In this document: positions 790 through 59,093 of the stretch, piece after piece
How the letters are laid out: each line of letters opens with the position of its first letter
Position numbering within the stretch: position 1 is the first letter of the stretch
Assembly (NCBI GenBank): GCA_041500865.1
Contig: JBGQMY010000003.1
Coordinates: forward strand, 6,728 to 70,727
DNA from: Candidatus Micrarchaeia archaeon
Lineage (GTDB): Archaea > Micrarchaeota > Micrarchaeia > Anstonellales > J096
Length of the DNA stretch: 64,000 nt
Direction of reading: 5' to 3'
Notes under the pieces: generated by a model
Told to the model about the DNA's origin: nothing
Databases searched by the model: none
The model's input: only the letters and a program-made list of their open reading frames with translations
Translations under genes and position numbers: made by a program

Positions 790-1734
790 TCAGGCGGCAA
801 TGCAGTCGCCGAAGGATTTCATGAACGCGTTTCCGGTTATGCCCGCAAGCCATTCTATTGACTTGAGGAATGCGGCCGTTTTCTCTTTGCCGCTTGCCTT
901 GGCGATTGAGGGCGCGGTCTTGTGTTCTTTATCTTCTGCCTCGATGCTTGCGTTGTGTTCAAGCAATAAGGCGCAGGTTGGGGTGTGTCCATACATTGCG
1001 GCAAACATGAGCGCAGTCATGCCGTATTCGTTCTTTGCATTTACGTCTGCGCCCTTCTTGATTAGCAGTGCGCAGGTGTCGGTATTCTCGTTCCGTGCTG
1101 CATACATGAGCGCGGTCCTGCCGCGGTTGTCCTTTACATCGATGCTTGCTCCTTTATCGAGCAGTAAAGCGCAGGTTTGGGCGTGTCCGTTCCTTGCGGC
1201 ACACATGAACGCTGTCCAGCCGTCGTTGTCCTTTGCCTCGATGGTTGCGCCTTTTTCAAGCAGTAAAGCGCAGGTTTCGGTGCGTCCGTTCCATGCGGCA
1301 TACATGAGCGCAGTCCAGCCGTCATTGCTCTTTGCCTCGATGCTTGCGTTGTGTTCAAGCAGTAAAGCGCAGGTTGGGGTGTGTCCGTTCATTGCGGCAT
1401 GCATGAGCGCAGTCCAGCCGCCATTGCTCTTTGCCTCGGTGCTTGCTCCTTTTTCAAGCAGTAAAGCGCAGGTTGGGGTGCGTCCGTTCCATGCGGCACG
1501 CATGAGCGCGGTATCGCCGGAGTTGTCCTTTGCGTCTATGCTTGCGCCTTTCTTCAACAGCCTACTGATTTCTTCAGCATCTCCGTTTCCAGCGGCACCC
1601 AGGAGGGCGTCATTGAACTGCTTCTGCGCTTTTTCTGACAGTTTCGGCTTCTCGCTTGGCGCCGGCTCTTGCCTGCGTTTTATGATATGCATCTTCTCAA
1701 GCGCGCGCCTGAGCAAGGGCTTCCTTTCCTGCAT
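790..1734 (-). CDS. ankyrin-repeat protein (about 8 repeats) with C-terminal …FMKSFGDCIAA tail
   Basis: Repeated GxTALMxAAxxGHxxxxxLLLEKGA motifs; probable ATG at 1732-1734 preceded by conserved promoter-like 'ATTTTTATTCCCTTTGCCGCACAACAAAGCC' (track start at 1752 is TTG). Confidence 0.8.
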   Translation of the reverse strand: MQERKPLLRRALEKMHIIKRRQEPAPSEKPKLSEKAQKQFNDALLGAAGNGDAEEISRLLKKGASIDAKDNSGDTALMRAAWNGRTPTCALLLEKGASTEAKSNGGWTALMHAAMNGHTPTCALLLEHNASIEAKSNDGWTALMYAAWNGRTETCALLLEKGATIEAKDNDGWTAFMCAARNGHAQTCALLLDKGASIDVKDNRGRTALMYAARNENTDTCALLIKKGADVNAKNEYGMTALMFAAMYGHTPTCALLLEHNASIEAEDKEHKTAPSIAKASGKEKTAAFLKSIEWLAGITGNAFMKSFGDCIAA

Positions 1735-1857
1735 GGCTTTGTTGTGCGGCAAAGGGAATAAAAATGGCTCCGCGAAGCTTTTTGGAAAAAGGCTTTGGCG
1801 AAAACAGGCTTAGCGCCCAGCCTTCCTTTGTTTGGCGCTGCGGCGCCCTAATCAAAG

Positions 1858-2994
1858 TCATGCTGCAATGCATTCGTTGAATGATACCATGAACGCGTTC
1901 CCCCCAATCGCAAACAATTCCATTAATTTGAGGAACTCCGCGGTGTCGGTGTATCTGGTATATGGGTTGTTGGGGTCTGCGGCCTTGTGCAGGGCTGTCT
2001 TGCCGCGATTGTCCTTTGCGTTTATGAATTCCTTTAAGTCCCCGTCTGTTTTTGCGTATTCGTCTATTAGCAATTTGCAGAAGTTGGTTAATCCGTATTG
2101 TGCGGCCTCGTGCAGGGCTGTCTTGCCGCCTTTGTCTTTTGCGGCAATCAGTTCCTTTGCGTCCCCGCCGGCTTTTGCGTATTCCTGTATCAGCAGCAGG
2201 GCGACGTCCTGGATAAGCCCAGACCGCGGAGCATTGTGCAGGGCTGTCTTGCCGCCTTTGTCTTCTGCGGCAATCAGCTCCTTTGCGTCCCCGCCTGCCT
2301 TTGCGTATTCCTGTATCAGTAGGGAGCATAATTGTGCCTCTTTCGAAGCTGCGGCCTCGTGCAGGGCTGTATTGCCGCCCGTGTTCCTTGCGGTTATGAT
2401 TTCCTTTGCGTCTCCGCCGGCTTTTGCGTATTCGCCTATGAGCAGGATGCCGATTTCAATATGCCCTTCCCATGCGGCATGGTGCAGGGGTGTGGTGTCA
2501 TAGTAATTGTCCTTTGCGGCAATCAGTTCCTTTGCGTCCCCGCCGGCTTTTGCGTATTCGCCTATGAGCAATTTGCAGGTTTCGGCGTGTCCCTTTTCTG
2601 CGGCATCATGCAGGGCTGTACCTTTACACTTGTCCTTTGCGGCAATGAGTTCCTTTATGTCGCCGCCTGCCTTTGCGTATTCGCCTATGAGCAGGGCGCA
2701 GGTTTCGGCGTGCCCATCCAATGCGGCATGGTGCAGGGGCGTCTTGCCTTCATTGTTTCTTGCAAGGACTGAATGACGGTCCTTATCCTTTGCAGTCATG
2801 TCCGCGCCTGTCTTGATGAGCCGCAGCATCTTTGCATTGTTGCCATTCTTTGCGGCGCTGATAAGCGCATTGTCAAGCCTTCTTCCGGCAAACAGCCTCC
2901 TTATCGACCGCGCTGCCGATGCCAGCACCTCCCTTGTGCGCTCCAAATGTTTTTTGGGCTTGCTGGCCTGCCGTGGCCTATGCCGCTGCTCCAT
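1858..2994 (-). CDS. ankyrin-repeat protein with C-terminal …FMVSFNECIAA tail
   Basis: 378 aa; about 8 ANK repeats (TPLHHAAxxGH…LLI); upstream region nearly identical to that of 790..1734. Confidence 0.8.
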   Translation of the reverse strand: MEQRHRPRQASKPKKHLERTREVLASAARSIRRLFAGRRLDNALISAAKNGNNAKMLRLIKTGADMTAKDKDRHSVLARNNEGKTPLHHAALDGHAETCALLIGEYAKAGGDIKELIAAKDKCKGTALHDAAEKGHAETCKLLIGEYAKAGGDAKELIAAKDNYYDTTPLHHAAWEGHIEIGILLIGEYAKAGGDAKEIITARNTGGNTALHEAAASKEAQLCSLLIQEYAKAGGDAKELIAAEDKGGKTALHNAPRSGLIQDVALLLIQEYAKAGGDAKELIAAKDKGGKTALHEAAQYGLTNFCKLLIDEYAKTDGDLKEFINAKDNRGKTALHKAADPNNPYTRYTDTAEFLKLMELFAIGGNAFMVSFNECIAA

Positions 2995-3024
2995 GCCTTT
3001 GTTGTGCGGCGAAGGGAATAAAAA

Positions 3025-3597
3025 TCAGGAGGAAATGCACATGTCAAATGCGGAAAGGAACGTGGGGACCGGTTCTTTGCCGAATAGATTTTGCAGGCGT
3101 TCTATGCGCCCAAGATATGCCATGACCTGGTTTCTACCTACATGTCCAGCAACCATGCGCGCAGTGCGTTGGTTCTGGCTCTCTTCTATGTTGATGTCCG
3201 CGCCGCGCCCAGCCAAGAACTTGCATGCCTCAATGCGGCCCCAGATTGCCGTATATATAAGTGCCGTCCTGTTGTAATTGTCAGTTGCGTTTATATCCGC
3301 GCCTTTTTCCAGCAATAGCGCGCATGTTTCGGTGCGGCCTTCCCTTGCCGCCCACATCAAAGGAGTCATTATGCTGCTTTTTGACCTTGCCTCAATGTCT
3401 GCGCCCGCGTTGAGGAGCTGCTCGATTTTCATGGTTTCGCCATGATAAGCGGCATTGAAGAGCGCCTGGTCCAATTCATCCTGGGTTTTCGCAACGATTG
3501 CCGGCTTTTCAGGCTCTAGTTTGCGGAAGCAGATTCTGCGCAGTGTCTTGATTATTTTGGATTCCCGCATTTTTTCCAGTGCGGCCATTCCTGCCAT
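3025..3597 (-). CDS. ankyrin-repeat protein with C-terminal …FLSAFDMCISS tail
   Basis: 190 aa; 3-4 ANK repeats (TPLMWAAREGRTETCALLLEKGADINA…). Confidence 0.8.
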   Translation of the reverse strand: MAGMAALEKMRESKIIKTLRRICFRKLEPEKPAIVAKTQDELDQALFNAAYHGETMKIEQLLNAGADIEARSKSSIMTPLMWAAREGRTETCALLLEKGADINATDNYNRTALIYTAIWGRIEACKFLAGRGADINIEESQNQRTARMVAGHVGRNQVMAYLGRIERLQNLFGKEPVPTFLSAFDMCISS

Positions 3598-3672
3598 GTT
3601 CCGGGATTGCGCGATAGATTATAAAAAACCACCTAATGCGCCTTTTTAACACTTTTCATCCCAAACAAATGC

Positions 3673-5031
3673 ATGCAGGAAAAGCCAATCTTGAATAATG
3701 GCGAGCCTAAACAGGCAAGGCAGCCATTGCTGGACAAGGACGCGGCACAAAGGGCGCTGGACTGCGGCCTTATCAGCGCAGTGATGGACGGAAAAATCGA
3801 AAACGCAAAAAGCCTCGTTGAAATGGGCGCAAGCGTTGAGGCAAAGGACTATTGGGGAAAGACCGCGCTGATGTGCGCATGCATGCAGGGCCATGAGGAT
3901 GTCGCCTTGTTTCTTATTGATAACGGCGCCAGCATGAATTCAAAAGACAATGGCGGATGGACGCCGATGATGTTTGCGGCGAACAATGGATTCAACGAAA
4001 TAATAGGGATGCTTATTGACAAGGGGGCAGATGCCTATGCGGTGGACAACGCGGGGCACACTGCGCTGATGCACGCGGTTCACGAAGAGCGCATTGACGC
4101 CGCGAGGTTCATGACAAAAAAGGGATTTGGGCTGAAAACGCACAGGATAAGGTGGATTGACGACATACCTTATGCCGCAAGCGAAGGAAGGGAGCTGATG
4201 ATGAGGTTCCTTGTTGAAGAAGGGGCGAATATCGACGCAGTCGGAGGCATGTTCTCCACGACTGCGCTTGATTACGAGATAAGGTGCGGGAACTTCGGAT
4301 TGGCGAAGTTCCTTTTGGACCATGGCGCCAACATCGACAAAGGAGACAGCTTTGAAAAGACTGTGCTGATTCGCGCAGTGGAAAACCGCAACATCAAGGC
4401 GATGTCGTTCATCCTGGAAAACAAGGCAAATATTGACGCAAGGGAGCAGACCAAGAAGACTGCGCTGATGATTGCATGTGAAAATGGGCATATGGAAGCG
4501 GTCAGGCTCCTTGTCGAGAACAAGGCATCGCTGGATTTGGGGGCGATGACTGCGCTGCTGCATGCATTGCAGAATAGGCATGCTGAAGTCGCAAAATTCC
4601 TGATAAAGAGCGGCGCAGACGTGAATGCGAAGGACATCAACGGCTTGACTGCGCTCATGTGGGCGTCACCCTGGGCAGACACGAACATCGCCAGGATGCT
4701 TCTGGAAAAAGGCGCCGATGTGAATGCAAGCGACAAGGAAAGAAAGACCGCGCTGATGCACGCAGCCGAAGGCAGGAACATCGGAACCATAATGTTCCTG
4801 GTGGACAACGGGGCATGGATAAACACAAAGGACATATATGAAAGGAATGCCGTGGATTACGCGCTTAGATACGACAGCAGCAGGACGGACATGCGCGTGC
4901 CGTACACCGATTCGCAGGGCGACGGGATGGAAACTGCAAGATTCCTGAGGTTCGCCCACATGTTCCAGCCCCTTGTGGGGATAGGACCGCTGAGCGAGCT
5001 TGCGCTGGATTTCGCTGCATGCGTTTCGTAA
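3673..5031 (+). CDS. large ankyrin-repeat protein (about 12 repeats) with C-terminal …LALDFAACVS tail
   Basis: 452 aa; repeated 'KTALMxAxxxGHxExVxxLIxxGAxxNxKD' units. Confidence 0.8.
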   Translation: MQEKPILNNGEPKQARQPLLDKDAAQRALDCGLISAVMDGKIENAKSLVEMGASVEAKDYWGKTALMCACMQGHEDVALFLIDNGASMNSKDNGGWTPMMFAANNGFNEIIGMLIDKGADAYAVDNAGHTALMHAVHEERIDAARFMTKKGFGLKTHRIRWIDDIPYAASEGRELMMRFLVEEGANIDAVGGMFSTTALDYEIRCGNFGLAKFLLDHGANIDKGDSFEKTVLIRAVENRNIKAMSFILENKANIDAREQTKKTALMIACENGHMEAVRLLVENKASLDLGAMTALLHALQNRHAEVAKFLIKSGADVNAKDINGLTALMWASPWADTNIARMLLEKGADVNASDKERKTALMHAAEGRNIGTIMFLVDNGAWINTKDIYERNAVDYALRYDSSRTDMRVPYTDSQGDGMETARFLRFAHMFQPLVGIGPLSELALDFAACVS

Positions 5032-5277: not shown

Positions 5278-5413
5278 TGCCAAGGGGGGGACTCGAACCC
5301 CCGACCTCTAGATGGCCCAAAGCGTGCCTATCATCGCCGTTTTCCAACGGCTCAGCACTCACAAAAGCGTGTTTTATGAGTCTAGCGCTCTAAGCCGGCT
5401 GAGCTACCTTGGC
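5278..5413 (-). tRNA. tRNA-Met/CAT-anticodon tRNA with ~60-nt intron at canonical 37/38 position
   Basis: Minus strand reads GCCAAGG-TA-GCTCAGCCGGCTTAGAGC-G-CTAGA-CTCATAA-[intron]-TCTAG-AGGTC-GGGGGTTCGAGTCCCCC-CCTTGGC-A. Confidence 0.75.
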
Positions 5414-6955: not shown

Positions 6956-7354
6956 ATGGACGCTGAAGGCATGATGAAGAAGCTCGACGCTTTGAAAATC
7001 AAATTCAGCGTTGTCGGAAGCTACGCGCTCATGGCAAACGGCTACAAGGTCAAGCCCAACGACGTTGACATCATAGTTGATAAGAAAGATGTTGAAAAGG
7101 CGAAATCCGCGCTCTCGGAGTTCGGGGCAGAGGCGGAAGTCTACGAAGGGACGCCAAAATCAAGGGTATTCACTCCGCAAGAGTACAAGGAGCTGTTCCT
7201 TTCAAAGTTCACCAACGACGACCTCATGATAGAGAAGCTCGCAAGGCACGCGGTTGACGAGCCGAGGCTGCTCGCGCTTTTTGAGGGAACGGAAATTATG
7301 TTCGTACTTGAAAGCATGAAAAAGGATATTGAACGGAAGCTTGCGAAAAAATGA
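6956..7354 (+). CDS. minimal nucleotidyltransferase (Pol-beta superfamily, MNT-like)
   Basis: 132 aa; 'VVGSYALMANG…PNDVDIIV' = hG[GS] + DxD NTase signature; start abuts stop of the upstream ORF. Confidence 0.55.
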   Translation: MDAEGMMKKLDALKIKFSVVGSYALMANGYKVKPNDVDIIVDKKDVEKAKSALSEFGAEAEVYEGTPKSRVFTPQEYKELFLSKFTNDDLMIEKLARHAVDEPRLLALFEGTEIMFVLESMKKDIERKLAKK

Positions 7355-8103
7355 GCGCCCTGGACTGGATAGCTTTGGCCATTGCCGGAATATACTCCAA
7401 GCTGCTTTCACTTGTCCAGCACCTTGGCACGCCGCTGCACGAGTCATGCCATTTTGTCGCCGCGTCGCTCGCCGGCCTAAGGGTCAGTGAGTTTGTGCCG
7501 TATTACGCGCTTTCCAAGGACAGGAATGCGCTGAAGGCGCAGGGCGTACTGGGCTATGTCAGGCACGAGAAGGCAAGGGACGAGGCAGTCAACATAATAG
7601 TCGGCGCATCGCCCCTGCTTGCGCTTTGTTTCGTGATACTTCTTGCTGACGCATACCTTGCAGACATGTACGGGAAGGCGCTTGTCAGCATAGTCGCGCT
7701 CGTTTTCCTCACGCCCTCGCGTAAGGATACGTTTGAGGACTTCTCTGACGTGGGGGCCACGATCATGAACATTCCCCTCATAATATTCATAAGGCTCGTT
7801 GGCCTGCTTTTCAACTCAAACGTCTTGCTGGCGATGGCGTTCCACGTTTTGCTGGCAATAGCGGTCCTGCTCCTTGTCATTGCCATGAAAACGCTTGTCG
7901 TCGCGTTCCTGTTCGCGTCGCTCCTCACGCTGCTTTCGTACAGGATGGCAAACGGCATATTGCTGTTCATTTCCAAGATGCTGTTTTACCTGACATTTCC
8001 GCTGTCAACCATTTTCTGGGCCGCGTGCGCAATATCTTATTATTACCTTGGGACAGACTATTTCAGCGCGATAATCGGCTATGTCCACGACATCTGGCCG
8101 TAA
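7351..8103 (+). CDS. polytopic membrane protein with HExxH motif (putative membrane metalloprotease)
   Basis: 250 aa; 'LHESCHFVAASLAG' then ≥5 hydrophobic helices; ATGA start/stop overlap with the NTase gene. Confidence 0.5.
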   Translation: MSALDWIALAIAGIYSKLLSLVQHLGTPLHESCHFVAASLAGLRVSEFVPYYALSKDRNALKAQGVLGYVRHEKARDEAVNIIVGASPLLALCFVILLADAYLADMYGKALVSIVALVFLTPSRKDTFEDFSDVGATIMNIPLIIFIRLVGLLFNSNVLLAMAFHVLLAIAVLLLVIAMKTLVVAFLFASLLTLLSYRMANGILLFISKMLFYLTFPLSTIFWAACAISYYYLGTDYFSAIIGYVHDIWP

Positions 8104-11675: not shown

Positions 11676-12779
11676 TCATACGGCTAATTCCTTGGCAAAT
11701 AGCCTATTGAATCTTTCCACGACTCTTTTCCTGAAATTATAGCTATTTGCAAATCTGGCATAAGCAAGCCAGCCTTCCAGGCTTTTCACTATTTCTTCCC
11801 TGTTCATCTCTCCTTTATCGCATTTCCGTTTGAACATGTCAAGGCGCTCCCAGATTCTTCTGGCATTGCTCTTCTTGAGAAGCCGGTACCCATGAAAAAT
11901 CCTGAAGCCAAGAAATGCTATGCCCCGTTCCAATGGAATAATGCTGGACTTTTCAGGATGGAGCCTTATCTTGAGCCGGTATGCCAGAAACTCGCTTATT
12001 TCAGCGTTCCACATTTCAAGCATTTTCCTGTCCCTGTGCAGAATCACGAAATCATCCACATAGCGGATGTAATATCTGGCCCCAAGCCGCTCCTTTGCAA
12101 AATGGTCGAATCCGTTCAGGTATAGATTGGCAAAGAATTGCGAGGTCAGGTTTCCAAGGGGCATCCCTTTCCCATGAACTTCAGCTTTGTGGTTTGCCAA
12201 TATCATTCTTACCAATTGCATAATATCCGGATCCTTTATTTTACGGCTAATCATCTCCAATAGGATTTCATGTTCAACTGTCGCAAAATAATGCAGAATG
12301 TCCGCCTTGAGGGCATATCCGCAGCAAACGGATTCTTCATCGCTAGGCTCTTTTTCTGCTTTTGGCTTGCAGAAAGAGACCGCGCGCATGAACCGCTCCA
12401 GTCTCCGTATCGCATTATGCGTTCCCTTGCCTTTCCTGTTGGCAAATGAGTCAAAGATGAAATCCTTTTCAAAAATGGGCATTATGACGTTGCATAATGC
12501 ATGGTGCACAACGCGGTCCCTGAAATGGGACGCGCTTATTTTTCTGGTCTTTGGGTCCCTTACGAGGAATACAGTTGGCGGGCGAGGCGAATAGGCAAAT
12601 GCCTTCAGCTCGGATTCCAATTGCCTGAGATTATTTTCAAGATTGGATTCGAACTCAATTACATAATCCTTCAGCGTTTTCCTTTTTCTGGCTTTCTGAA
12701 ATGCAAGCTTAAGGTTTTCATAGGAGCAAACCTGCGGATAAAGATGCCTGTAGGATTTCATGGGTTTCGCCAAGCGCAC
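11676..12779 (-). CDS. diversity-generating retroelement (DGR) reverse transcriptase
   Basis: 367 aa; RT motifs incl. DGR-specific 'LGNLTSQFFANLYLNGFD' (replaces QG of intron RTs) and 'YIRYVDDFVI' (YxDD); TR lies immediately 5'; GTG at 12779 or ATG at 12761. Confidence 0.85.
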   Translation of the reverse strand: MRLAKPMKSYRHLYPQVCSYENLKLAFQKARKRKTLKDYVIEFESNLENNLRQLESELKAFAYSPRPPTVFLVRDPKTRKISASHFRDRVVHHALCNVIMPIFEKDFIFDSFANRKGKGTHNAIRRLERFMRAVSFCKPKAEKEPSDEESVCCGYALKADILHYFATVEHEILLEMISRKIKDPDIMQLVRMILANHKAEVHGKGMPLGNLTSQFFANLYLNGFDHFAKERLGARYYIRYVDDFVILHRDRKMLEMWNAEISEFLAYRLKIRLHPEKSSIIPLERGIAFLGFRIFHGYRLLKKSNARRIWERLDMFKRKCDKGEMNREEIVKSLEGWLAYARFANSYNFRKRVVERFNRLFAKELAV

Positions 12780-12790
12780 AGATAAATGCC

Positions 12791-13050
12791 CCTAGGGTGC
12801 AAGCCCAAGTCATTCCGAACGCATTGGACGGCCTGTAGTTCGCGTTGACGTTCTGCCTGTTGTTGCCGTTGTTGTTGACGTTGCGGACCAGAAGGCCTCA
12901 AGAGTAACCCGTCTGCCACAATGGCACTTTCGTGCCAACACCGCCGCTTCACGCTTTCAATCCATGATTTACTCAATGTCGCGGCTGAATCCCATGTCTG
13001 GCTTTAACCAGCACTGCAGACAGGTGTGTGGCCTAGGCTTGCACCCTAGG
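12791..13050. repeat. 15-bp perfect inverted repeats (cctagggtgcaagcc / ggcttgcaccctagg) bracketing TR plus ~135-nt spacer
   Basis: 12791-12805 is the exact reverse complement of 13036-13050; could form a long-range stem enclosing the TR RNA. Confidence 0.5.
12809..12898 (-). repeat. DGR template repeat (TR)
   Basis: ~90 nt homologous to 13315..13404; coding-strand reads …CGC AAC GTC AAC AAC AAC GGC AAC AAC AGG CAG AAC GTC AAC GCG AAC TAC…; all differences from VR are at TR adenines. Confidence 0.75.
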
Positions 13051-13076: not shown

Positions 13077-13988
13077 TTAAAGCGCTTTCCCTACCGCATC
13101 CAGGAATTCCCTGATTGGCGCTACGATCTGGGCGTCGATTATGCCAGGCATCCTGCCAACAGCGCTTACAGCCCTATTATATGCGGCTTTCAGCTCATCA
13201 GCCGAGATGCCGGGCACTTTGATAATCGTCTCTTTTTCAGCCGGTTTTCCTGACTGAACATTAGAGGCAAGAAGCGCCTGGATTTTTTCGGTGTCCCCTT
13301 CGGGGACTTCCAACGCCACCCCGAACGCACCGGACGGCCCGAAGTACGCGTAGACGCCCTGCCTGCCGTAGCCGAGGTCGTCGACGACGCGGACCAGAAG
13401 GCCCACATATGAAGAACCATTCAGCCTCCAAAGATATCTTGCATCCGGGCTTTGCGGCACCTTGTCTCCATGCGGAACGCCTGTTTCCTTATGCGGCATG
13501 TACAAGCCATCAGGACCTGGGAATTCTGGAACCGGTATCAGCCTGTCTTTTGAAATGTCCAAAACCATTGAATCTCCGTCTTTCTGGAAATCTTTTGAGG
13601 TTAGACCCAGTGCCACAAGCGCAACGTTCTTTTCGCCCTTATAATCCCCTGTTGTCGGCAAAACTATCCTTGAACCGTCTCCTGCGGAAAAGACTATCTC
13701 CTTTCCCAGTCTAACGCCTGGCTTTTCATAGGCGATTGAGGCGTCAACAGCGAAAGGCGTCATTGGAACCAAGCTTCTCCATGTCGCTCCAACGTTAAGC
13801 GCAACATCCGCTGTGTTATGGGATATGACTAGGCAATTGGTTCCATGCACATTGTTGAATTCCTCAACTAAAGGATGGGCATCAAAAAGCTTTGTTGTTC
13901 CGCTGTTCCTTAGAATCAGTATGTTCTTCTTTTGTCCGTTAGCCTCTAACTTTATCAGTTCCTTTCCAGCAATTTGGATTTGTGACAT
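13077..13988 (-). CDS. DGR target protein (variable protein; uncharacterised family, paralog of 59364..60158)
   Basis: 303 aa; contains the VR at aa ~196-225 (…VRVVDDLGYGRQGVYAYFGPSGAFG…); adjacent to TR-RT on same strand. Confidence 0.75.
   Translation of the reverse strand: MSQIQIAGKELIKLEANGQKKNILILRNSGTTKLFDAHPLVEEFNNVHGTNCLVISHNTADVALNVGATWRSLVPMTPFAVDASIAYEKPGVRLGKEIVFSAGDGSRIVLPTTGDYKGEKNVALVALGLTSKDFQKDGDSMVLDISKDRLIPVPEFPGPDGLYMPHKETGVPHGDKVPQSPDARYLWRLNGSSYVGLLVRVVDDLGYGRQGVYAYFGPSGAFGVALEVPEGDTEKIQALLASNVQSGKPAEKETIIKVPGISADELKAAYNRAVSAVGRMPGIIDAQIVAPIREFLDAVGKAL
13293..13307 (-). promoter_or_regulatory. GC hairpin 7 nt downstream of VR 3' end (IMH-associated stem-loop)
   Basis: gtcccc-ttc-ggggac: 6-bp GC stem, 3-nt loop, positioned as in characterised DGRs. 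Confidence 0.5.
13315..13404 (-). repeat. DGR variable repeat (VR) inside target gene
   Basis: Matches TR except ~20 positions, each where TR coding strand has A (TR AAC -> VR GTC/GAC/CTC/TAC/GGC/TTC codons). Confidence 0.75.
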
Positions 13989-23984: not shown

Positions 23985-24557
23985 TTATTCCTTGGCGCCG
24001 ACCTGCTTCAGGAGATTGACTATTTCGGCGTTCCCATCGGATTCAGCATATATAAGTATAGTGTAACCGTTTTCGTCCTTTGCGTTGACGTCCGCGCCTT
24101 TGTCTATCAGCAGGCTAACTACATCAGTATGCTTCTTTACTACAGCCCACATGAGCGCGGTGTAACCGTGATTGGTTTTTGCGTTGACGTCCGCGCCTTT
24201 GTCTATCAGCAGCTTGGTGATATTAGTGTTCCCACCATATGCAGCCTGCATGAGCGCGGTGTAACCGTTTTCGTCCTTTGTGTTAACGTCCGCGCCTTTG
24301 TCTATCAGCAGGCTAACTACATCATTATTCCCAAAAGGTGCGGCATACATGAGCGCGGTCATGCCGGAACGATCTGTTGCGTTGACGTCCGCGCCTTTGT
24401 TGATTAAACTTTTCGCAAGGGCAGTATCGTTATGTTGAGTAGCGTTCAGTAACTCTGCAGTGTAATTCTCCTGCCCTGTCGGTTGATTGTTTGTCTGTCC
24501 CAAGCACCCGAAAAGCAGTACTAATCCAAGAACGATTGCCAATATCGCAGTTCTCAT
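23985..24557 (-). CDS. secreted/lipoprotein-like ankyrin-repeat protein
   Basis: Signal peptide with lipobox-like 'LLFGC'; 4-5 ANK repeats; no Cys tail. Confidence 0.75.
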   Translation of the reverse strand: MRTAILAIVLGLVLLFGCLGQTNNQPTGQENYTAELLNATQHNDTALAKSLINKGADVNATDRSGMTALMYAAPFGNNDVVSLLIDKGADVNTKDENGYTALMQAAYGGNTNITKLLIDKGADVNAKTNHGYTALMWAVVKKHTDVVSLLIDKGADVNAKDENGYTILIYAESDGNAEIVNLLKQVGAKE

Positions 24558-27940: not shown

Positions 27941-28351
27941 TTATTTGGCGCCATGCTCTTTGAGGAAGGCAATGGCCTTTTCTAGGGATTCATATCTTGG
28001 ATTTGGAATGCGCCTGTCATCCGGCTGCTCCGAACGCAAATGCTCAAGCTCGCGCAAGTTGCCAAGCGGTGTGCCGGCAGTGCAAATGGTTTTTGGGATG
28101 TGTAACAGGGCTTCTTTTGCATTCTCCAGCACGGTCATCTCTTCTTCATCCACGGCATTGGGGTCTGCCCCTTTCCGGATGAGGCACTCGACTTCCTTAT
28201 AATCGTAATTCTGGACTGCTTTAATCAGTTTCTTGTTTCTGTGATTCTCAACTACCGCCTTGAATTTCTCTAATATGCCGCGAGGACTGGGTTTGTACTG
28301 TTCATTAACCTGCCTGCCAATCTTGCTCGGCTCGACTACTGTGCCGTTCAT
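27941..28351 (-). CDS. small hypothetical protein with a single ankyrin-like repeat
   Basis: 136 aa; 'LIKAVQNYDYKEVECLIRKGADPNAVD'. Confidence 0.4.
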   Translation of the reverse strand: MNGTVVEPSKIGRQVNEQYKPSPRGILEKFKAVVENHRNKKLIKAVQNYDYKEVECLIRKGADPNAVDEEEMTVLENAKEALLHIPKTICTAGTPLGNLRELEHLRSEQPDDRRIPNPRYESLEKAIAFLKEHGAK

Positions 28352-28504: not shown

Positions 28505-28577
28505 TGGGGTAACCCGGATTTGAACCGGGATCACAAGCTCCCAAAGCTCGCAGGCTACCAGGTTGTCCCATTACCCC
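28505..28577 (-). tRNA. tRNA-Pro (anticodon TGG)
   Basis: GGGGTAA…CGAGC-TTTGGGA-GCTTG…CCCGGTTCAAATCCGGG-TTACCCC-A on minus strand; D-stem has one mismatch. Confidence 0.65.
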
Positions 28578-46111: not shown

Positions 46112-46870
46112 TCAGACGGACTTCAGCCCGGCATAAAAGTCCCTCATCCGAGGGTCATAAGTGCCGAATGCCGTGGTAAGCTCCTTTTCAACGTCCATGA
46201 GGAATGACCTGGCTTCCTTCCTGTTTTTCACTGTCCTGGCTATCGCAATGGCCCTGGCTGTTATCGCTTCAACAGTGAGCCCCGGCTTTTTCTTGGACGG
46301 AACGGCGATCAGCTTCTGGGACATGATGACATGCCTTGCCCTCCTGAGCGCGATGTTCTCCTTGAAGCGCCTTACTATGCCCTCGAACCTTGTCTTGGAC
46401 CTTGGCTTGGCACGCCTTGGCTTCTTCCGCCTGGATATTGCATATGCCGCGGCTGCAGCCCCTATAATCCCCGTGCCTGCAAGGATGCCCTTCCATGGCA
46501 GTTTCTTGGCAGGCTTTTTCCCATGCCCGGCATCATTTGAGATGGCAAGCGCGTCTCCAAGTTCATTGCTCTTTTCAGCCTTGGCGGCCATATGCATTGC
46601 CCTGGCACATCTGCATTTGGCATGCGCCTTGGCCTTGGCCAGCCCCCCTGGGCTCTTTTGTTCCTCCTTGTTTTTGCCCAAGACCTTTTTTGGGATGGCC
46701 TGCGCTGAGGAATAGCTGGAATCGTGCATCGGGCTCTGTTTTGCCGCATATGCGCATCCGCTTATGGATGACCCGAATGCCAGCGCAAGCGTAGCGGCCA
46801 ATGCAAGCGGAAAATTGATTTTCCTGGCCTGTGTTTTGGCATACGTTTTAGCATCAATTTTATTAGCCAT
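46112..46870 (-). CDS. hypothetical membrane protein, paralog (C-terminal domain) of 44733..46043
   Basis: 252 aa; signal peptide + TM 'ILAGTGIIGAAAAAYAI' + shared C-terminal '…TAFGTYDPRMRDFYAGL'. Confidence 0.45.
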   Translation of the reverse strand: MANKIDAKTYAKTQARKINFPLALAATLALAFGSSISGCAYAAKQSPMHDSSYSSAQAIPKKVLGKNKEEQKSPGGLAKAKAHAKCRCARAMHMAAKAEKSNELGDALAISNDAGHGKKPAKKLPWKGILAGTGIIGAAAAAYAISRRKKPRRAKPRSKTRFEGIVRRFKENIALRRARHVIMSQKLIAVPSKKKPGLTVEAITARAIAIARTVKNRKEARSFLMDVEKELTTAFGTYDPRMRDFYAGLKSV

Positions 46871-46908: not shown

Positions 46909-47670
46909 CTATTCCTGAAGCCAGATGGGCTTTCCGTCCTTCATATCTATGGACGCGGCCTGGCTTGCAAAAAGATTAATCATGTCCGGGCTGTTGATTT
47001 GCCTGGCATAGCCAAGCGCATCCATGCCTGCCTTGTCTATTGCCTTGGCATCAGCGCCCTTGCTTACCAGGAAAGCGCATGTTTCGCTGAATCCCCTCAT
47101 TGCTGCCCAGATGAGCGCGGTCCTGCCCCATACAGTATCACTTGCGTTTATGCTTGCGCCATTTTCAATAAGCAGGCTGCATACGCCAATCCTGCCCAGG
47201 TATGCCGCCCACATGAGCGGGGTCCTGCCTGACTTGTCTGTTGCATTGACGCTTGCGCCTTTCTTTATCAGGAGTGCACAGGTGCTGGCTCTCCCACGGT
47301 ATGCTGATTCCATGAGCGGGGTGATGCCATTCACGTCAGTCGTTTCCATGTCCGCGCCATTTTCCAGCAGGAATGCGCATATCCTTTTGTTGCCTGCGCC
47401 CGCAGACCCCATGAGCGCGGTTTTGCCGCATTCGCTCTTTGCATTGACGTCCGCGCCAGCCTTGATGAGCCGCAGGATTTCTTCTGCATTTTTCGAGCCC
47501 TGCCATTGGAATTTTGCGTTCCATGCCGCATTGAGGAGTTTTTTGTCCAGTTCCTCCTGCAGGTCAGTGCGGAGCTTGCTTGGTTTGTCTGGCTCAGGCT
47601 TCATCTTTTTGTCAAAAGGCGGCTTTCTGTTAGTTGCACTGCGCCTTTGTTTCTCCGTTTTCTGCGCCAT
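46909..47670 (-). CDS. ankyrin-repeat protein
   Basis: 253 aa, about 5 ANK repeats; first of three tandem ANK genes with duplicated promoter regions. Confidence 0.75.
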   Translation of the reverse strand: MAQKTEKQRRSATNRKPPFDKKMKPEPDKPSKLRTDLQEELDKKLLNAAWNAKFQWQGSKNAEEILRLIKAGADVNAKSECGKTALMGSAGAGNKRICAFLLENGADMETTDVNGITPLMESAYRGRASTCALLIKKGASVNATDKSGRTPLMWAAYLGRIGVCSLLIENGASINASDTVWGRTALIWAAMRGFSETCAFLVSKGADAKAIDKAGMDALGYARQINSPDMINLFASQAASIDMKDGKPIWLQE

Positions 47671-47702
47671 GTGTCCGTTTATGTTAGAAAAAGATTAAAA
47701 GG

Positions 47703-48452
47703 TTATGCGGGGCCCGGCGACTGCCGCAAGCTGGCAATATAGGGCTTTCTTTTGGCCGGACCCATGGACGCGGCGCGCCTAAGCAGGTCAACCGTGCCTG
47801 TATGCTCGTTTTCCTGTGCCCATACGTATGCGGTCATGCCCCCATTGTCCTTTATGCTGATGTCTGCGCCTTTTTCAAGCAGCAGCATTGCCGTTTCCCT
47901 GTATCCGATTTCAGCGGCATATGTAAGCGCGGTCCTGCCGAAGTTGTCCCTTGCATCCACGTTTGCGCCTTTCCCAATCAGCAATGCGCAAATGCCGGCC
48001 TGTCCGCCAAATGCCGCATGCATCAGTGCAGTCCTTTCAAGGCTGTCTGTTGCGTCCACGATTGCGCCTTTCCCAATCAGCAGGGCGCATATGGCCATCA
48101 GCCCTGACGATGCGGCGTGCATGAGGGCAGTTCCGCCGACGTTGTCCTTTGCATCGATGGCTGCCGCGTTGTCAATCAGCATTATGCATGTCTCGGCATG
48201 CCTCCGCTGTGCGGAAAGCATCAGCGCGGTCATGCCCCTGCCGTCTACTGCATCTGCCTGCGCGCCCTGTTCCAGCAGCATTTTGGCCTTGCCTGTCTCG
48301 CCGTCCATGGCCGCCTGCAGAAGTTCCAAGCCCAGCCTTTTCTGCCGCCTGTTGGCGGGCCTCTTGCACCCATCCGCCTCTGGCTTGAAAAATGCCCTTT
48401 CCGGCTTTTTTTCGCTTTTTGGGATTCCGAATTTACCCAATGTGAGGAGCAT
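47703..48452 (-). CDS. ankyrin-repeat protein
   Basis: 249 aa, about 5 ANK repeats. Confidence 0.75.
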   Translation of the reverse strand: MLLTLGKFGIPKSEKKPERAFFKPEADGCKRPANRRQKRLGLELLQAAMDGETGKAKMLLEQGAQADAVDGRGMTALMLSAQRRHAETCIMLIDNAAAIDAKDNVGGTALMHAASSGLMAICALLIGKGAIVDATDSLERTALMHAAFGGQAGICALLIGKGANVDARDNFGRTALTYAAEIGYRETAMLLLEKGADISIKDNGGMTAYVWAQENEHTGTVDLLRRAASMGPAKRKPYIASLRQSPGPA

Positions 48453-48533
48453 GTGTCTGTTTATGCATAAAAAGGATTAAAAGGTTATGCCGGGCCTGGC
48501 GGTTGCCGCAAGCTGGCAAGATAGGACTTTCTT

Positions 48534-49607
48534 TTATCTGGTTGCCCACTTATAGATTTCAACGCCCAGGAGAAACTGAGGCGTTGCGCCGCTGCTATCT
48601 ATCGCGTTTTCGTCCGCCCCATTTTTCACAAGGAATTTGTATACTTTCCTGTTCATTCCAAAAACGGTTTCTGCGGCATAGTGCAGTGCTGTCCTGCCTT
48701 CCTTGTCGCCCATATCAATAAACTTTTTCACATTCCCGCCGGCTTCAGCATATTTTTGTATGAGGAGGTTGCAGATTAAAGTCCTGCCTGGCAACGCAGG
48801 AATGGCTGCGGCATGGTGCAGGGATGTCCGGCCGTCATTGCTTTTTGCGGCAATCAGCTTCTTTATGTCCCCTCCGGATTTTGCGTATTCTTTTATAAGA
48901 AACGCGCAGGTTTTTATGCTTCCGTAAGCTGCGGCATACATGAGCGGGGTGTTGCCGCAGTTGTCCGCTGCGTTCAGGTCGGCGCCATTTTCAACCAGAA
49001 TCTCGCAGGTTTCTGTGTACCCGTAGCATGTTGATGCTGCAGTTATGAGCGCGGTTTCACCGTATTCGTTTCTCGCATTCACGTCAGCGCCGTTATCAAT
49101 CAGCAGATTGCATGTCTCGGGATTACGGGCTGCAGCATATATGAGCGGAGTGTTGCCGAACTTGTCCCTTGCGTCCACATCCGCCCCGGCTTTCAGAAAA
49201 GTCTCAATCCCTGCAGAGTCACAAAAAAATGTGTTGGTTATAGCCTCATCAAGAAGCATGCTGTCCAACCGCGCCTGTTCCATCTTGGAAATCGCCGGTT
49301 TCGCATCTGCTGCGGCCTTCCTTTGGCTTTTGTTTTTCTTGGAATAGCAATTCAGGACTTTTATGCAGTTTGCCAATTTTCTCTGCGCCATTTCCAAGCT
49401 AATGTCATTCCAGCAGCCTCCGCACGCCAGCGCGGCTGCGAGAATTCCGGGCATTACCCACGCCGGAATGCGGATTCCGATTTTTTTATTGGCGGCTGTT
49501 GGGTTATCGGCTGCGTCCTTTGCCTTTCTCGTTATCATGCATATTTGATTTTCGCTGTTTTTTGCGCCATCCGCTGCCTTTGCCAAAAACGGCTTTTCTG
49601 CTGCCAT
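48534..49607 (-). CDS. ankyrin-repeat protein
   Basis: 357 aa, about 7 ANK repeats (…GNTPLMYAAAYGSIKTCAFLI…). Confidence 0.75.
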   Translation of the reverse strand: MAAEKPFLAKAADGAKNSENQICMITRKAKDAADNPTAANKKIGIRIPAWVMPGILAAALACGGCWNDISLEMAQRKLANCIKVLNCYSKKNKSQRKAAADAKPAISKMEQARLDSMLLDEAITNTFFCDSAGIETFLKAGADVDARDKFGNTPLIYAAARNPETCNLLIDNGADVNARNEYGETALITAASTCYGYTETCEILVENGADLNAADNCGNTPLMYAAAYGSIKTCAFLIKEYAKSGGDIKKLIAAKSNDGRTSLHHAAAIPALPGRTLICNLLIQKYAEAGGNVKKFIDMGDKEGRTALHYAAETVFGMNRKVYKFLVKNGADENAIDSSGATPQFLLGVEIYKWATR

Positions 49608-49801
49608 GCCTATAATATCAATATATCATTTTTAAAACACGCATATTCGCTAATTTACACCACAACGAAATCGCGGCTATTGCCGCCCTTTCTGCTCATT
49701 ATCTGATATTTAAGAGCGTTTGCATGCATCTTATGGAAAAGAATATCCATTGCCAAAATCCGGTGGGGGGTTGCCAGTTTGCGGTCGGGATGGGCCAAGG
49801 G

Positions 49802-56634: not shown

Positions 56635-57339
56635 TTGATTATGGAACAGAGGCAGAAGCCCATCCGCGGAGCCATGCAAAAGGCGAAATCGCTGTTTTCA
56701 GGCAAGGCGAAGCCCGAAGGCGCGAGAAGGTTGAACGAGAAAGAGCAGAAGGAGTTGAATGACAGGCTCTTTGCCGCGATTTGGGATTATAAAAAATTAT
56801 TAACTGACGAAATGCAAATCGAAACCCATATTGTAGCGCGTTATACTTCAAGGTCGCGCATCAGGAGGCTGTTGAGGCTTGGCGCAGACGTGGATGCAAA
56901 GGACAGCGGCGGCGAGACCCCGCTCACGCGGGCCGCATGGAAAGGCGATATGGACATTTGCAAAATCCTGATTGAAAACGGGGCAAACCTGGAGGCAAAA
57001 GACGCGTATTGGGGAGATACGGCATTGATGCTTGCTGCCCGCAATGGCAATCAGTATTTGGTTAAATACCTTGTTTCGCGCGGGGCTGATGTGAACGCAA
57101 GGAACAATAATGGCGAAACGCCTTTGGTTCTGGCTGTTGGCGGCAGCACGACAAAGGAATGGAAGACTGTGCGTGTCCTTCTTCAGAGCGGCGCAAACCA
57201 GCTTGGAGCCGCTTTTATGCATGCCAGATTTGACGTGGCTGAATTGCTGAAAAATGCAATGATGAATCAGCTTGAAAATGTAATCGGAAAAGAAAGCTTC
57301 GCGCTGTTCATGCGCTCGTTCAGGGAATGCACTGCCTGA
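56635..57339 (+). CDS. ankyrin-repeat protein with C-terminal …FMRSFRECTA tail
   Basis: 234 aa; paralog of 58359..59093 (N-terminal 'KSLFSxKAKPExARxLNEKEQKxLND' and tail conserved). Confidence 0.75.
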   Translation: MIMEQRQKPIRGAMQKAKSLFSGKAKPEGARRLNEKEQKELNDRLFAAIWDYKKLLTDEMQIETHIVARYTSRSRIRRLLRLGADVDAKDSGGETPLTRAAWKGDMDICKILIENGANLEAKDAYWGDTALMLAARNGNQYLVKYLVSRGADVNARNNNGETPLVLAVGGSTTKEWKTVRVLLQSGANQLGAAFMHARFDVAELLKNAMMNQLENVIGKESFALFMRSFRECTA

Positions 57340-57342
57340 TGT

Positions 57343-58269
57343 TCATTCCCCTTCTGTCATGCCCGCCTTAAGCGGCAGGCCCTGCCTCGGGACAAGCGTT
57401 TGGGCGTAATTGGAAAACAGCATTACGGCGGCGATGCCTGCCAGCAGGACCGCCAAGCCAGGCATTACTCCCATGCCGAGCACGCTCCATTTGCCCAGCG
57501 CAGTTTTCATCACCGATTCGTGGAACAGGAAGAGCGCGAACGTGGATTTCCCTGCAATGGAAAATGCGCTGCGGACGGCTTTGGAGCCGAAGTCCGGGAC
57601 AAGCGAGAAAAGGAAAAACAATGCAAACGGCACTGCCATCACAGGATAGGCGATTGAAAGCAGCAATGGCGACAAAAGCCAAACGTCCCTCCTGCCGTGC
57701 GCCAGCGCGATGCCAAAGCAGAATTCAGCCATGAAGAACAGCGGCGAAAACGACGTTAGCGAACCGTCCATCAAGCGGATTGCGAGCGAAACGATTACGG
57801 CAAGCAGCAGGAAGGCAGGGAACCTCTTTGTCAGCAGGTTCAGGTAAGGATAGAGTATATACAGCCCTATCAGCGGCACCACGAACCATGATGGGCTGAT
57901 GAGCGTGTATTGCACGGCACTGTCAATCCAGTTCATGAACGAGAAATGGAGCAGGATGTCGCCAATGGCCCCGGAATATACCTGTGTGCCGAAAAGAATG
58001 GCGACAAGCAGCAAGGCAGGATAATAAAGCGAGGATATCTTCAGCCAGCGCCTGAAAATCCATCCCAAGTCAAACGAAACAAGGCCCGGATAGCGCATGG
58101 CAAGCGCGAAGCCGCTTATGATGAAGAACAGCGAGGCGCCGATGAACCCGTAAGGCCTCAGCCCGGAATCAAGCGTGAACTCGTATGCCACGTGAAAACC
58201 GATTATGAGGAGTATGGCGACAACCCTGGCGAAATCCAGCCACACTATCCTGTTATCGGGATTGGGCAT
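57343..58269 (-). CDS. acyltransferase-3 family membrane protein (OatA-like)
   Basis: 308 aa, about 10 TM helices; N-terminal 'RIVWLDFARVVAILLIIGFHVAYE'. Confidence 0.65.
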   Translation of the reverse strand: MPNPDNRIVWLDFARVVAILLIIGFHVAYEFTLDSGLRPYGFIGASLFFIISGFALAMRYPGLVSFDLGWIFRRWLKISSLYYPALLLVAILFGTQVYSGAIGDILLHFSFMNWIDSAVQYTLISPSWFVVPLIGLYILYPYLNLLTKRFPAFLLLAVIVSLAIRLMDGSLTSFSPLFFMAEFCFGIALAHGRRDVWLLSPLLLSIAYPVMAVPFALFFLFSLVPDFGSKAVRSAFSIAGKSTFALFLFHESVMKTALGKWSVLGMGVMPGLAVLLAGIAAVMLFSNYAQTLVPRQGLPLKAGMTEGE

Positions 58270-58358
58270 TGCACATATATGCGGGATAACGGTTTTATCC
58301 CTTTCCTTTTTCCAAGTGATAAAAAAGAGCCGGATTTTTAACCCCTTTTGAGCATAAT

Positions 58359-59093
58359 TTGATTATGAAGCAGAAGGAAAGGCAGGAAAGCCATGTATTC
58401 CTGCAAAAGTCGAAATCGCTGTTTTCGCGCAAGGCAAAGCCAGAATCAGCAAGAAAGCTAAACGAGAAAGAACAAAAGGATTTGAATGACATGCTCTTTG
58501 CAGTGATTTCAAAGCATAAAAAATTTACAGAGGATGCCACCTCTTATGAGCCTGCCCAAATCCACATTGTATCATATCCTATATCAATTATCCGAATCAA
58601 GAGGCTGCTTAAAGCCGGAGCGAATCTTGAAGCAAGGGACAATGAAGGCAGGACTCCGTTAATGTATGCTATATTTACTGAGCATATGGACATCTCCAAA
58701 ATTCTTGTTGAAAATGGCGCAGAGATTGAGGCAAAGAACAATGACGATATGACAGCACTGATGTTTGCTGCAGCCTCAGGTAATCATAAGATAGCTAACT
58801 ATTTAATTTCGCGGGGGGCAGACGTAAATGCAAAAGATAGAAATGGTCATACCCCATTGGTTTTGGCTGTCCATAATGACTTTGTTAGATCTGGCAGCGG
58901 CCACAACATCCTTAAAACCGCCAAGATCCTGATAAAGAACGGGGCCATAATAGGCCAGAATGCACTCATGTGCGCGGGTAGGGATAAAACGATTGAGTTT
59001 CTTAAAAAAGCAATGCTGGCCCAGCTCGAAAAACAGATGGGAAAACAAAATTTCTCGCTGTTTATGCAATCTTTTAAGGAATGCACTGCCTGA
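58359..59093 (+). CDS. ankyrin-repeat protein with C-terminal …FMQSFKECTA tail
   Basis: 244 aa; paralog of 56635..57339. Confidence 0.75.
   Translation: MIMKQKERQESHVFLQKSKSLFSRKAKPESARKLNEKEQKDLNDMLFAVISKHKKFTEDATSYEPAQIHIVSYPISIIRIKRLLKAGANLEARDNEGRTPLMYAIFTEHMDISKILVENGAEIEAKNNDDMTALMFAAASGNHKIANYLISRGADVNAKDRNGHTPLVLAVHNDFVRSGSGHNILKTAKILIKNGAIIGQNALMCAGRDKTIEFLKKAMLAQLEKQMGKQNFSLFMQSFKECTA

Follow-up and report, generated by a model that had tools for sequence, protein, structure and literature searches.

A greatly expanded family of ankyrin-repeat (ANK) proteins, built as a constant end, a variable binder and a second constant end, was found in an uncultured archaeon, in a window of 64,000 nucleotides, i.e. 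the whole stretch of DNA analysed here. The family is lineage-specific. Its members consist of a conserved, basic N-terminal region of ~45 aa (M[Q/E][E/Q]R..., mean charge +4.75), a middle part of 2–10 ANK repeats with hypervariable residues at the canonical target-binding positions, and a C-terminal module of ~28 aa that is constant across paralogues, with a cysteine two or three residues from the end in most members. As judged by sequence comparison, this tail is a real and previously undescribed element, conserved in other archaeal metagenome contigs. A preliminary description of this DNA had proposed an expanded ANK family sharing a Cys-containing C-terminal tail, which is borne out, the Cys being invariant. 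Its further suggestion, that the tail is a CaaX box hijacking eukaryotic prenylation, is unsupported in view of the variable spacing, the mostly non-aliphatic a2 position, the structured upstream segment and the placement of the organism with Micrarchaeota.

Ankyrin genes of the window

The 13 ankyrin genes first reported all coincide with ORF boundaries, but the count of at least 13 holds only in part. Twelve contain ANK repeats above the Pfam gathering threshold (Ank_2 PF12796, Ank PF00023), namely the eight tailed genes and the ORFs at 23985, 46909, 47703 and 48534; ORF 27941–28351 is not detectably ANK, with no Pfam match at E ≤ 0.01 and one degenerate repeat at most.

The tailed genes are found on both strands. 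On the minus strand, the gene at 790..1731 encodes 313 aa from an ATG at 1731, with ~7 repeats and a tail of the short-tail subtype (790–876) ending in SIEWLAGITGNAFMKSFGDCIAA. The gene at 1858..2994 encodes 378 aa, including 41-aa “EYAKAGGDxKELIAAKD” variant repeats, and its tail (1858–1944) ends in GGNAFMVSFNECIAA. The 190-aa product of 3025..3597 (P0001), which was chosen for the structure models, ends in RLQNLFGKEPVPTFLSAFDMCISS (tail 3025–3111). The same strand carries P0002 (28625..29188, 187 aa; tail 28625–28711, ending in LIGIGHKRFILDFAECAGL) and P0006 (30174..30827, 217 aa from an ATG at 30827; tail 30174–30260, ending in PFGKEAFAAFLLDFRRCIGQ). On the plus strand, the gene at 3673..5031 encodes 452 aa and a divergent tail (4945–5031) ending in LVGIGPLSELALDFAACVS, whereas P0013 (56641..57339, 232 aa; tail 57253–57339, VIGKESFALFMRSFRECTA) and P0010 (58365..59093, 242 aa; tail 59007–59093, QMGKQNFSLFMQSFKECTA) have CXX endings. 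The ATGs at 1731 (not 1752), 30827 (not 30848), 56641 and 58365 are likely the true starts. A TTTTTA/TTTAA box is located ~25–30 nt upstream of them, which indicates leaderless transcripts.

Four of the 12 ANK genes lack the tail. Three of these are in tandem on the minus strand (46909–47670, 47703–48452 and 48534–49607) and show the basic N-terminus and the promoter type of the tailed genes; a tail remnant was sought downstream of the trio and none was found. The fourth (23985..24557, minus strand) is a separate, consensus-like ANK protein that is outside the tailed family. It has a putative N-terminal signal peptide with a lipobox-like LFGC, and its sequence MRTAILAIVLGLVLLFGC fits a lipoprotein signal (n-region, hydrophobic h-region, then L-[ASTVI]-[GAS]-C) except for Phe at −2 (judged by eye). 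One family copy is frameshifted and followed by a tail remnant (AFYSGFKECIQ*) which, together with the intact untailed paralogues, indicates that the ANK ORF does not need the tail to stay intact.

Conservation and predicted structure of the tail

The eight C-terminal endings quoted previously match the sequence exactly, and Gly, Phe at −3 and Cys are invariant in all of them. Strict tail patterns occurred 0 times across 50 shuffles of the window, and Cys at −3/−4 is found in 8/12 ANK ORFs versus 2/50 other ORFs (Fisher p = 5.7e-6), so chance does not explain the pattern. A 28-position tail-only HMM run against 2017 stop-to-stop ORFs from the window and related loci matched ANK ORFs only; the proposed search for the tail on non-ANK proteins thus gave none in this set. 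The most divergent case, the 3673 tail (LALDFAACVS), scores only 5 bits against the HMM, and a metagenome protein (P0024) carries a near-identical one. In the 28625 protein, as in 4/80 family members, the tail Cys is the sole Cys, so that an intramolecular partner is not needed.

Outside the window, where the tail might not have been conserved, the profile retrieved ~83 cluster representatives (50% identity) from public metagenomes, all of them short ANK-only proteins in which the match reaches the C-terminus. In Pfam, the 78 full-length members all contain ANK and no other domain. The consensus reads SMEKLQxxMGKExFxxF[ML]xSFx[E/D]C[IVTLA][SA][GASQ/none], with Cys in 83/83 representatives, F−3 in 81/83, F−7 in 79/83 and E/D−1 in 73/83. 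The Cys is followed by three residues in 53/83 (64%), by two (CXX) in 23/83 (28%) and by four or five in 7/83. Information content is 2.25–2.36 bits per column in the tail, 2.29 in the ANK scaffold, 1.57 in the N-terminus and near zero at the ANK surface positions, which makes the tail as well conserved as the scaffold and the N-terminus less so, overall identity between members being ~30–35%. Thirteen tailed genes, about one per 8 kb, are dispersed among housekeeping genes in ~104 kb of the same genome (GCA_041480205.1). No neighbouring gene proved to be conserved, and no Pfam, NCBIfam or PDB entry matches the tail.

The stacked helix-turn-helix repeats that define ankyrin proteins are present in the predicted fold of the 3025 protein (AF2 with 50 sequences, pLDDT 90.3; tail blocks 95/82/88), and its residues ~43–166 superpose on an N-cap, two repeats and a C-cap at 1.0–1.4 Å rmsd. 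In the model, helix B of the last repeat continues for two extra turns, a conserved Gly-Lys-Glu turns the chain back, and a separate 14-residue amphipathic helix follows (muH 0.46, charge −0.6), the Gly turn dividing helices 156–172 and 176–189. The hydrophobic stripe of this second helix comprises F(−10), F(−7), M/L(−6), F(−3), C(0) and I/V(+1), so the Cys would sit on the Phe stripe (pLDDT 82–95), and the protein stops two or three small residues past it. It had been considered that the tail might simply be the last ankyrin helix; only the upstream “TAxFLK” is assigned to ANK helix B, and the Cys-bearing part is predicted as a helix of its own. A PDB profile search likewise gave matches limited to positions 1–14 of the tail profile, which correspond to ANK helix B. 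The contacts of the tail are deduced from secondary structure, pLDDT and heptad pattern. In the short-tail subtype, which lacks KExF, a Trp is always present in the helix-B extension, consistent with hairpin packing.

Possible roles of the tail and its cysteine

A possible reading, and the one we tentatively favour, is that these proteins vary in what they bind but share a constant handle for docking or anchoring, with a functionally essential thiol. The architecture, its conservation, the confinement of the tail to ANK proteins and its loss from some paralogues are shown by the data; a docking role, the partner and the chemistry of the Cys we infer: the tail would be a common handle that docks every paralogue to one partner or surface, while the choice of target would differ between the ANK arrays. 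A covalent or lipid link, or metal or disulfide bridging, would require the chemistry of the invariant thiol, which would not serve mere packing. Against this, the high pLDDT of the predicted tail fits a purely intramolecular cap equally well, no neighbouring gene is conserved, the invariance of the Cys and the covariation of the Trp with the deletion may partly reflect shared descent, and both conserved termini could be due to mere recent paralogy, although members are only ~30–35% identical.

An ordinary structural C-cap, whose hairpin shields the hydrophobic face of the last repeat while the Cys packs and the shared tail reflects paralogue descent with no separate function, is a somewhat unlikely alternative. 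The heptad-like stripe does make the Cys part of the hydrophobic face, folding of the tail is predicted with confidence, the tail occurs with ANK domains only, and the Trp/deletion covariation suggests intramolecular packing of the hairpin. However, Ala, Ser or Val can normally take the place of a Cys that is buried for packing, whereas here the Cys is kept in 83/83 members at ~30% overall identity, and the number and identity of the residues after it are likewise constrained. Moreover, standard ANK domains are already capped inside the 124 aligned residues, and the untailed paralogues survive as intact ORFs.

Native archaeal lipidation is unlikely. The Cys would be S-prenylated or S-acylated by an archaeal enzyme, possibly with CPBP/Rce1-like trimming, and would anchor the protein to the membrane together with the Phe-rich helix, a CaaX-like outcome without a canonical CaaX box. 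This would fit an invariant Cys that in 92% of the family is 2–3 residues short of the C-terminus, is preceded by an amphipathic helix and is followed by small neutral residues ([IVTLA][SA][GASQ]). An HMG-CoA reductase gene in the genome means that isoprenoid donors are made, and lipidated CaaX peptides are cut in vitro by archaeal Rce1 homologues. Among prokaryotes, C-terminal signals that contain an invariant Cys and are processed by CPBP proteases exist (Haft 2023, bioRxiv 10.1101/2023.06.07.544157) and, according to two reports, FTase accepts many CXXX and some CXX sequences (PMC10320760, PMC10541624); both points also speak for lipidation. Less favourable are the variable spacing between Cys and C-terminus (2, 3 or 4–5 residues), the slightly acidic helix with E/D directly before the Cys, and the high pLDDT of the tail, unlike that of a free membrane-seeking helix. 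No prenyltransferase, CPBP or ICMT gene was found in ~104 kb of the genome or beside homologues and, to our knowledge, no archaeal cytosolic protein prenyltransferase has been described. In its most specific form, the proposal is that a C-terminal-Cys modification system native to archaea (S-prenylation or other lipidation, possibly with CPBP/Rce1-type trimming) both recognises the tail and uses it as the site of attachment, with dozens of cytosolic ANK proteins as its targets in a symbiont of the DPANN type. This we regard as more doubtful still; if true, no other family of natural substrates for CaaX-like processing would be known outside eukaryotes, and the proteins would act as a set of effectors anchored to the membrane or the host.

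It is quite improbable that the tail is a C-terminal recognition tag, either a secretion or translocation signal into the host cell or a degron-like non-polar end for an unfoldase such as PAN. The proteins look effector-like and lack a signal peptide, the organism falls with Micrarchaeota, a DPANN phylum, and the constant C-termini have small non-polar ends (-IAA, -VAA, -LAG, -VSS); archaeal PAN unfolds substrates bearing an ssrA-type ...LAA tail in vitro. Such good order is nevertheless rare in known secretion signals, no secretion-system or unfoldase gene linked to the family was found, and the invariance of the Cys would be left unexplained.

Farnesylation or geranylgeranylation of the tail as a CaaX box by a eukaryotic host prenyltransferase, as in Legionella AnkB, is very improbable. 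In 53/83 tails, Cys at −4 does go with an aliphatic residue at a1 and an X of the FTase type (A, S, Q, G), and some tails end in CASQ, the motif of farnesylated yeast Ydj1. A Cys at precisely that position is found, however, in only 5/8 window tails and those 53 family tails (the spacing is wrong in 3/8 and 30/83), and a2 is mostly Ser or Ala (62/83), small rather than aliphatic, between an a1 of I/V/T/L/A and an FTase-like X of G/A/S/Q. In CaaX substrates the box follows a flexible linker, whereas the 25 upstream residues of the tail are conserved (2.3 bits per column) and predicted to form a helical hairpin (pLDDT 82–95), not a flexible, poorly conserved linker. The genome, in addition, is Micrarchaeota-like and comes from freshwater-sediment metagenomes, with no sign of a eukaryotic host.

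Host association and comparison with known systems

A single-gene eIF2-gamma tree puts the organism among Micrarchaeota, to which it is probably related. Known hosts of Micrarchaeota are archaea; the organism looks like a symbiont of archaea, and its ankyrin content is plausibly that of a symbiont manipulating host proteins. DPANN archaea rely on host cells, and almost nothing is known of their host-interaction proteins. The gene density found here, the hypervariable binding surfaces and the constant ends make up an architecture that one would expect from an arsenal of effectors or adaptors, and the invariant near-terminal Cys offers a concrete experimental handle. Lipidation of this Cys would make the proteins candidates for the natural substrates of archaeal Rce1/ICMT-like enzymes, which have no known physiological targets; without it, the tail would remain a new and easily recognised marker at the sequence level, absent from Pfam and NCBIfam. 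As a family model, it could chart the lineage and its ANK repertoire.

The core of the 3025 protein resembles capped ANK domains (DARPins, AKR2A, gankyrin), over the superposable residues given above; the solved ANK structures retrieved contain no equivalent of the basic 40-aa N-terminal region or of the last ~24 residues, with the Cys helix. Like the tripartite C-terminal sorting signals (PGF-, CGP-, MYXO-CTERM and similar), the tail is a short, lineage-restricted, invariant-Cys signature present on many proteins per genome. Those signals combine the signature with a transmembrane helix and an Arg cluster on proteins exported by a signal peptide (Haft 2023, bioRxiv 10.1101/2023.06.07.544157), whereas the archaeal tail has two or three residues after the Cys and no transmembrane helix, basic cluster or signal peptide. 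The N-termini of the tailed proteins are basic and hydrophilic, and none of the NCBIfam CTERM models matches the tail.

The combination of a variable ANK array with a short helical C-terminal module is also found in poxvirus and Orientia ANK-PRANC/F-box proteins and in ASB ANK-SOCS-box proteins, whose modules (~30–40 aa) are, as here, common to many paralogues per genome. No Pfam match to PRANC, F-box or SOCS was obtained in the eight window proteins and 78 members (E ≤ 0.001–0.01). The BC-box spacing does not fit the tail, and the near-terminal invariant Cys has no counterpart there; we know of no Skp1 or Elongin partners in such archaea. Finally, AnkB of Legionella pneumophila, one of several bacterial CaaX effectors, is likewise an ANK protein with a Cys near the C-terminus, and about two thirds of the archaeal family end in C-aliphatic-small-(A/S/Q/G). 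AnkB, however, has a strict C-4 box used by a eukaryotic host enzyme and no conserved upstream helix, whereas the archaeal family has variable spacing, Ser/Ala at a2, a 28-aa helical module and, probably, an archaeal host.

Ankyrin-repeat genes and their constant ends

Ankyrin (ANK) repeats were confirmed by Pfam in the eight tailed open reading frames (ORFs) of the window (790–1731, 1858–2994, 3025–3597, 3673–5031, 28625–29188, 30174–30827, 56641–57339 and 58365–59093) and in four untailed ones (23985–24557, 46909–47670, 47703–48452 and 48534–49607). The preliminary description counted at least 13 such genes; all 13 of its coordinates coincide with ORF boundaries and its eight quoted C-termini are exact in the ORF translations, but ORF 27941–28351 has no match in the Pfam search, which reduces the count to 12. 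A TTTTTA/TTTAA box lies ~25–30 nt upstream of the ATG in all these genes, as in leaderless archaeal transcripts, and its position shifts four starts slightly inward, to 1731, 30827, 56641 and 58365.

The C-terminal alignment shows a module of ~35 residues common to the tailed ORFs: ‘TAxFLK’, 6–8 residues, an invariant Gly, 4–8 residues, the motif [FL][LMIA]x[SDA]FxxC, and 2–3 further residues before the stop codon. This pattern is far beyond chance: the strict tail patterns never appeared in 50 shuffles of the window, and a Cys at −3/−4 is found in 8 of the 12 ANK ORFs vs 2 of 50 other ORFs (Fisher p = 5.7e-6). Conservation extends to the N-terminus, which begins M[Q/E][E/Q]R... or MAQR..., carries a mean net charge of +4.75 over its first ~45 residues, and runs into the ANK N-cap ‘EEQKRLNxxLxxAA’. 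Between the two ends each member contains from 2 to ~10 repeats, with a conserved Cys in helix B family-wide (‘TCALLL’) and, in 1858–2994, 48534–49607, the homologous proteins P0089, P0132 and P0098 and others, a 41-residue repeat variant with an 8-residue insertion (‘LIxEYAKAGGDxKELIAAKD’). The per-column information is 2.25–2.36 bits in the tail, 2.29 bits in the ANK domain and 1.57 bits in the N-terminus, and its minimum within the repeats falls on the canonical target-binding positions. The family combines constant ends with a variable array for binding.

In the ~104 kb of the source genome that were read (the window and loci L090, L091 and L093) there are 13 tailed genes, and a tail-only HMM of 28 positions matched ANK ORFs alone among 2017 stop-to-stop ORFs. 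The same ~104 kb hold one frameshifted ANK copy, with the tail remnant AFYSGFKECIQ and its stop codon downstream in another frame; this remnant lies in the ~100 nt that follow the untailed copy at 9254–9874 of L090. A second untailed copy, at 4041–4661 of L091, is followed after its stop codon by ETAAYLKSLETKKE and a stop codon, again out of frame. Unless they are assembly errors, these remnants indicate tail loss by frameshift or truncation.

Several features accompany the ANK genes. Three of the eight tailed genes (3673–5031, 28625–29188 and 58365–59093) are followed, no more than 250 nt after the stop codon, by a tRNA gene (5278–5413, 28505–28577 and 59124–59209), where ~0.3 would be expected by chance; such adjacency was looked for beside the homologues in loci L083, L087 and L089 and was not seen. 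A membrane acyltransferase of the Acyl_transf_3 family (57343–58269, minus strand) lies between the tailed genes 56641–57339 and 58365–59093, on the strand opposite to both. Immediately upstream of the three untailed genes at 46909–49607, two adjacent minus-strand genes (44733–46043 and 46112–46870) encode products with a transmembrane segment and a common ~90-residue C-terminal domain (‘...GDPRMxxF...’), neither of which matches Pfam. A ~55-nt segment (aaaagaaag.cctat.ttgccagcttgcggca.c.gcc.ggccc.gcataacc) is repeated within 46909–49700, one copy being the 3′ coding end of 47703–48452 and the other non-coding, after 48534–49607, which shows tandem duplication of a gene plus its spacer.

The source chromosome

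The window is part of an archaeal chromosome, as indicated by its intron-containing tRNA genes together with genes for NMD3, PAC2, non-discriminating AspRS, eIF2-gamma, S6e, RFC and HisRS; a gene for HMG-CoA reductase lies just past its end. The same DNA is also present in the JGI metagenome 3300053059 and in the NCBI assembly GCA_041480205.1. Among the matches listed by a scan of genome contigs with the window eIF2-gamma there is no close relative, the best GTDB species representatives sharing only 53–55% identity with it, and none of the 80 archaeal loci among these matches has the tail. A neighbour-joining tree places the window sequence within a 12-member clade, whose other eleven sequences come from fetched loci, ten labelled Micrarchaeota and one (L054) Marsarchaeota; the nearest neighbours of the window sequence are L008 and L004. 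This single-gene placement tentatively suggests an organism related to Micrarchaeota.

The chromosome also carries a reverse-transcriptase ORF (RVT_1; 11676–12779, minus strand) with an RT-16 RNA motif directly upstream (Rfam RF03019; 12899–13050, minus strand; 62 bits vs a gathering score of 50), the pair (11676–13050) representing a reverse-transcriptase-associated structured RNA in an archaeal chromosome. Two paralogous proteins of 303 and 264 residues (13077–13988 and 59364–60158, both on the minus strand) share motifs such as ‘GDY.GEKN’ and ‘RLWR..GS..VG’ and match nothing in Pfam or NCBIfam. Equally devoid of matches in both databases is a 250-residue multi-pass membrane protein (7351–8103, plus strand) with an HExxH motif near its N-terminus (PLHESCHF), which could be an uncharacterised membrane metalloprotease. 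At 35949–43003 on the plus strand, a 1816-residue protein with no family match precedes a 535-residue one with a signal-peptide-like N-terminus, and the two may be paired large surface proteins like those described from DPANN genomes.

Conservation of the tail in other populations

The tail is conserved beyond the window. An HMM built on the C-terminal 49 residues, which took in part of the last ANK repeat and hence biased the global search towards ANK carriers, gave 164 matches (E ≤ 1e-3) among 1.84 billion public cluster representatives (50% clusters). Some 83 of these belong to short proteins (110–290 residues) in which the match reaches the C-terminus with the same tail, the rest being long generic ANK proteins aligned at profile positions 1–22 only. 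The family consensus is ...TAxFLKSMEKLQxxMGKExFxxF[M/L]xSFx[E/D]C[I/V/T/L/A][S/A][G/A/S/Q or none]. Numbered from the Cys at position 0, which is present in 83/83 and absent from no tail-like match, the most conserved residues are Phe −3 (81/83), Phe −7 (79/83), Glu/Asp −1 (73/83) and Gly −14 (58/83); the Cys is followed by three residues in 53, two in 23 and four or five in 7 members. In each of the 78 full-length members, ANK repeats are the sole Pfam domain.

No tail model exists in Pfam or NCBIfam, and PDB sequences align with the tail profile at positions 1–14 only, which correspond to ANK helix B (‘AAENGHKEVVKLL’), without any match at positions 15–42. Searches based on the tail alignment gave 121 pattern matches in genome contigs, none confirmed by tblastn, a single locus (L087) in metagenome contigs and no family member in viral contigs. 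Where the context of a locus could be read, it was that of an archaeal chromosome fragment, and at least three further populations are represented: L083 (TopoVI, ribosomal proteins, RFC), L087 (fibrillarin, a YGR210-type GTPase and two adjacent family copies) and L089 (tandem family copies). A viral or mobile origin was rejected, there being no viral matches and the genes having ordinary archaeal promoters and housekeeping genes as neighbours.

Predicted structure and possible roles of the tail

The product of 3025–3597 was modelled with AlphaFold2 at two alignment depths, 8 and 50 sequences, with pLDDT of 86.6 and 90.3, respectively. The predicted helices 146–153 and 156–172 form the last repeat, with a lengthened helix B, followed by a turn at G173-K-E and a helix (176–189) bearing F, F, F and C; the tail-block pLDDT is 95/82/88, and an N-terminal helix (residues 3–23) reaches 77–82 with the deeper alignment. 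The hydrophobic tail positions −10, −7, −6, −3, 0 and +1 have heptad spacing, so that the Cys forms part of the tail helix's hydrophobic stripe. A short-tail subtype without KExF, and hence without F−10, always has a Trp in the helix-B extension (‘EWLA’), which fits hairpin packing, although these sequences may represent one clade. Contacts of the tail are inferred from the predicted secondary structure, pLDDT and the heptad pattern. The tail Cys is the sole Cys in the 28625–29188 product and in 4 of 80 members, and therefore has no obligatory intramolecular partner; an intramolecular disulfide to the Cys conserved in ANK helix B (‘TC’) is ruled out by these same proteins. Readings as a PIP-box, HbYX or SOCS BC-box failed on inspection, due to mismatched spacing.

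The most likely reading, still a tentative one, makes the tail a handle common to the family for docking or anchoring, with a chemically required thiol. A purely structural cap is possible but rather unlikely. Native archaeal lipidation of the Cys is somewhat less probable still: Rce1 homologues of archaea cleave CaaX peptides that carry a lipid, and CPBP proteases process C-terminal signals of prokaryotes in which a Cys is invariant (Haft 2023, bioRxiv 10.1101/2023.06.07.544157), which makes a native CaaX-like pathway conceivable, but in those signals the Cys is followed by a transmembrane helix and an Arg cluster, neither of which is found in the ANK tails, and their carriers are exported proteins, unlike the ANK family. 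An export or degradation tag is improbable. Hijacking of a eukaryotic host's CaaX prenylation, a reading raised in the preliminary description, is the least credible: about two thirds of members end in CXXX and FTase is known to be permissive (PMC10320760), but the family departs from the defining CaaX features in three respects: its C-4 spacing is not fixed, a2 is mostly small (Ser or Ala in 62/83) instead of aliphatic, and the segment upstream of the Cys is predicted to be helical instead of a flexible linker. This reading also suits poorly an organism apparently related to Micrarchaeota.

No description of this family was found in the searchable literature, and it constitutes an ANK family, of moderate interest, whose terminal module had not been described before; a modification of the tail Cys, if proved, would raise that interest to high. 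Although without sequence relationship to it, the ANK-PRANC, ANK-F-box and ANK-SOCS adaptor/effector families have the same design as the archaeal family, a constant end joined to a variable binder.
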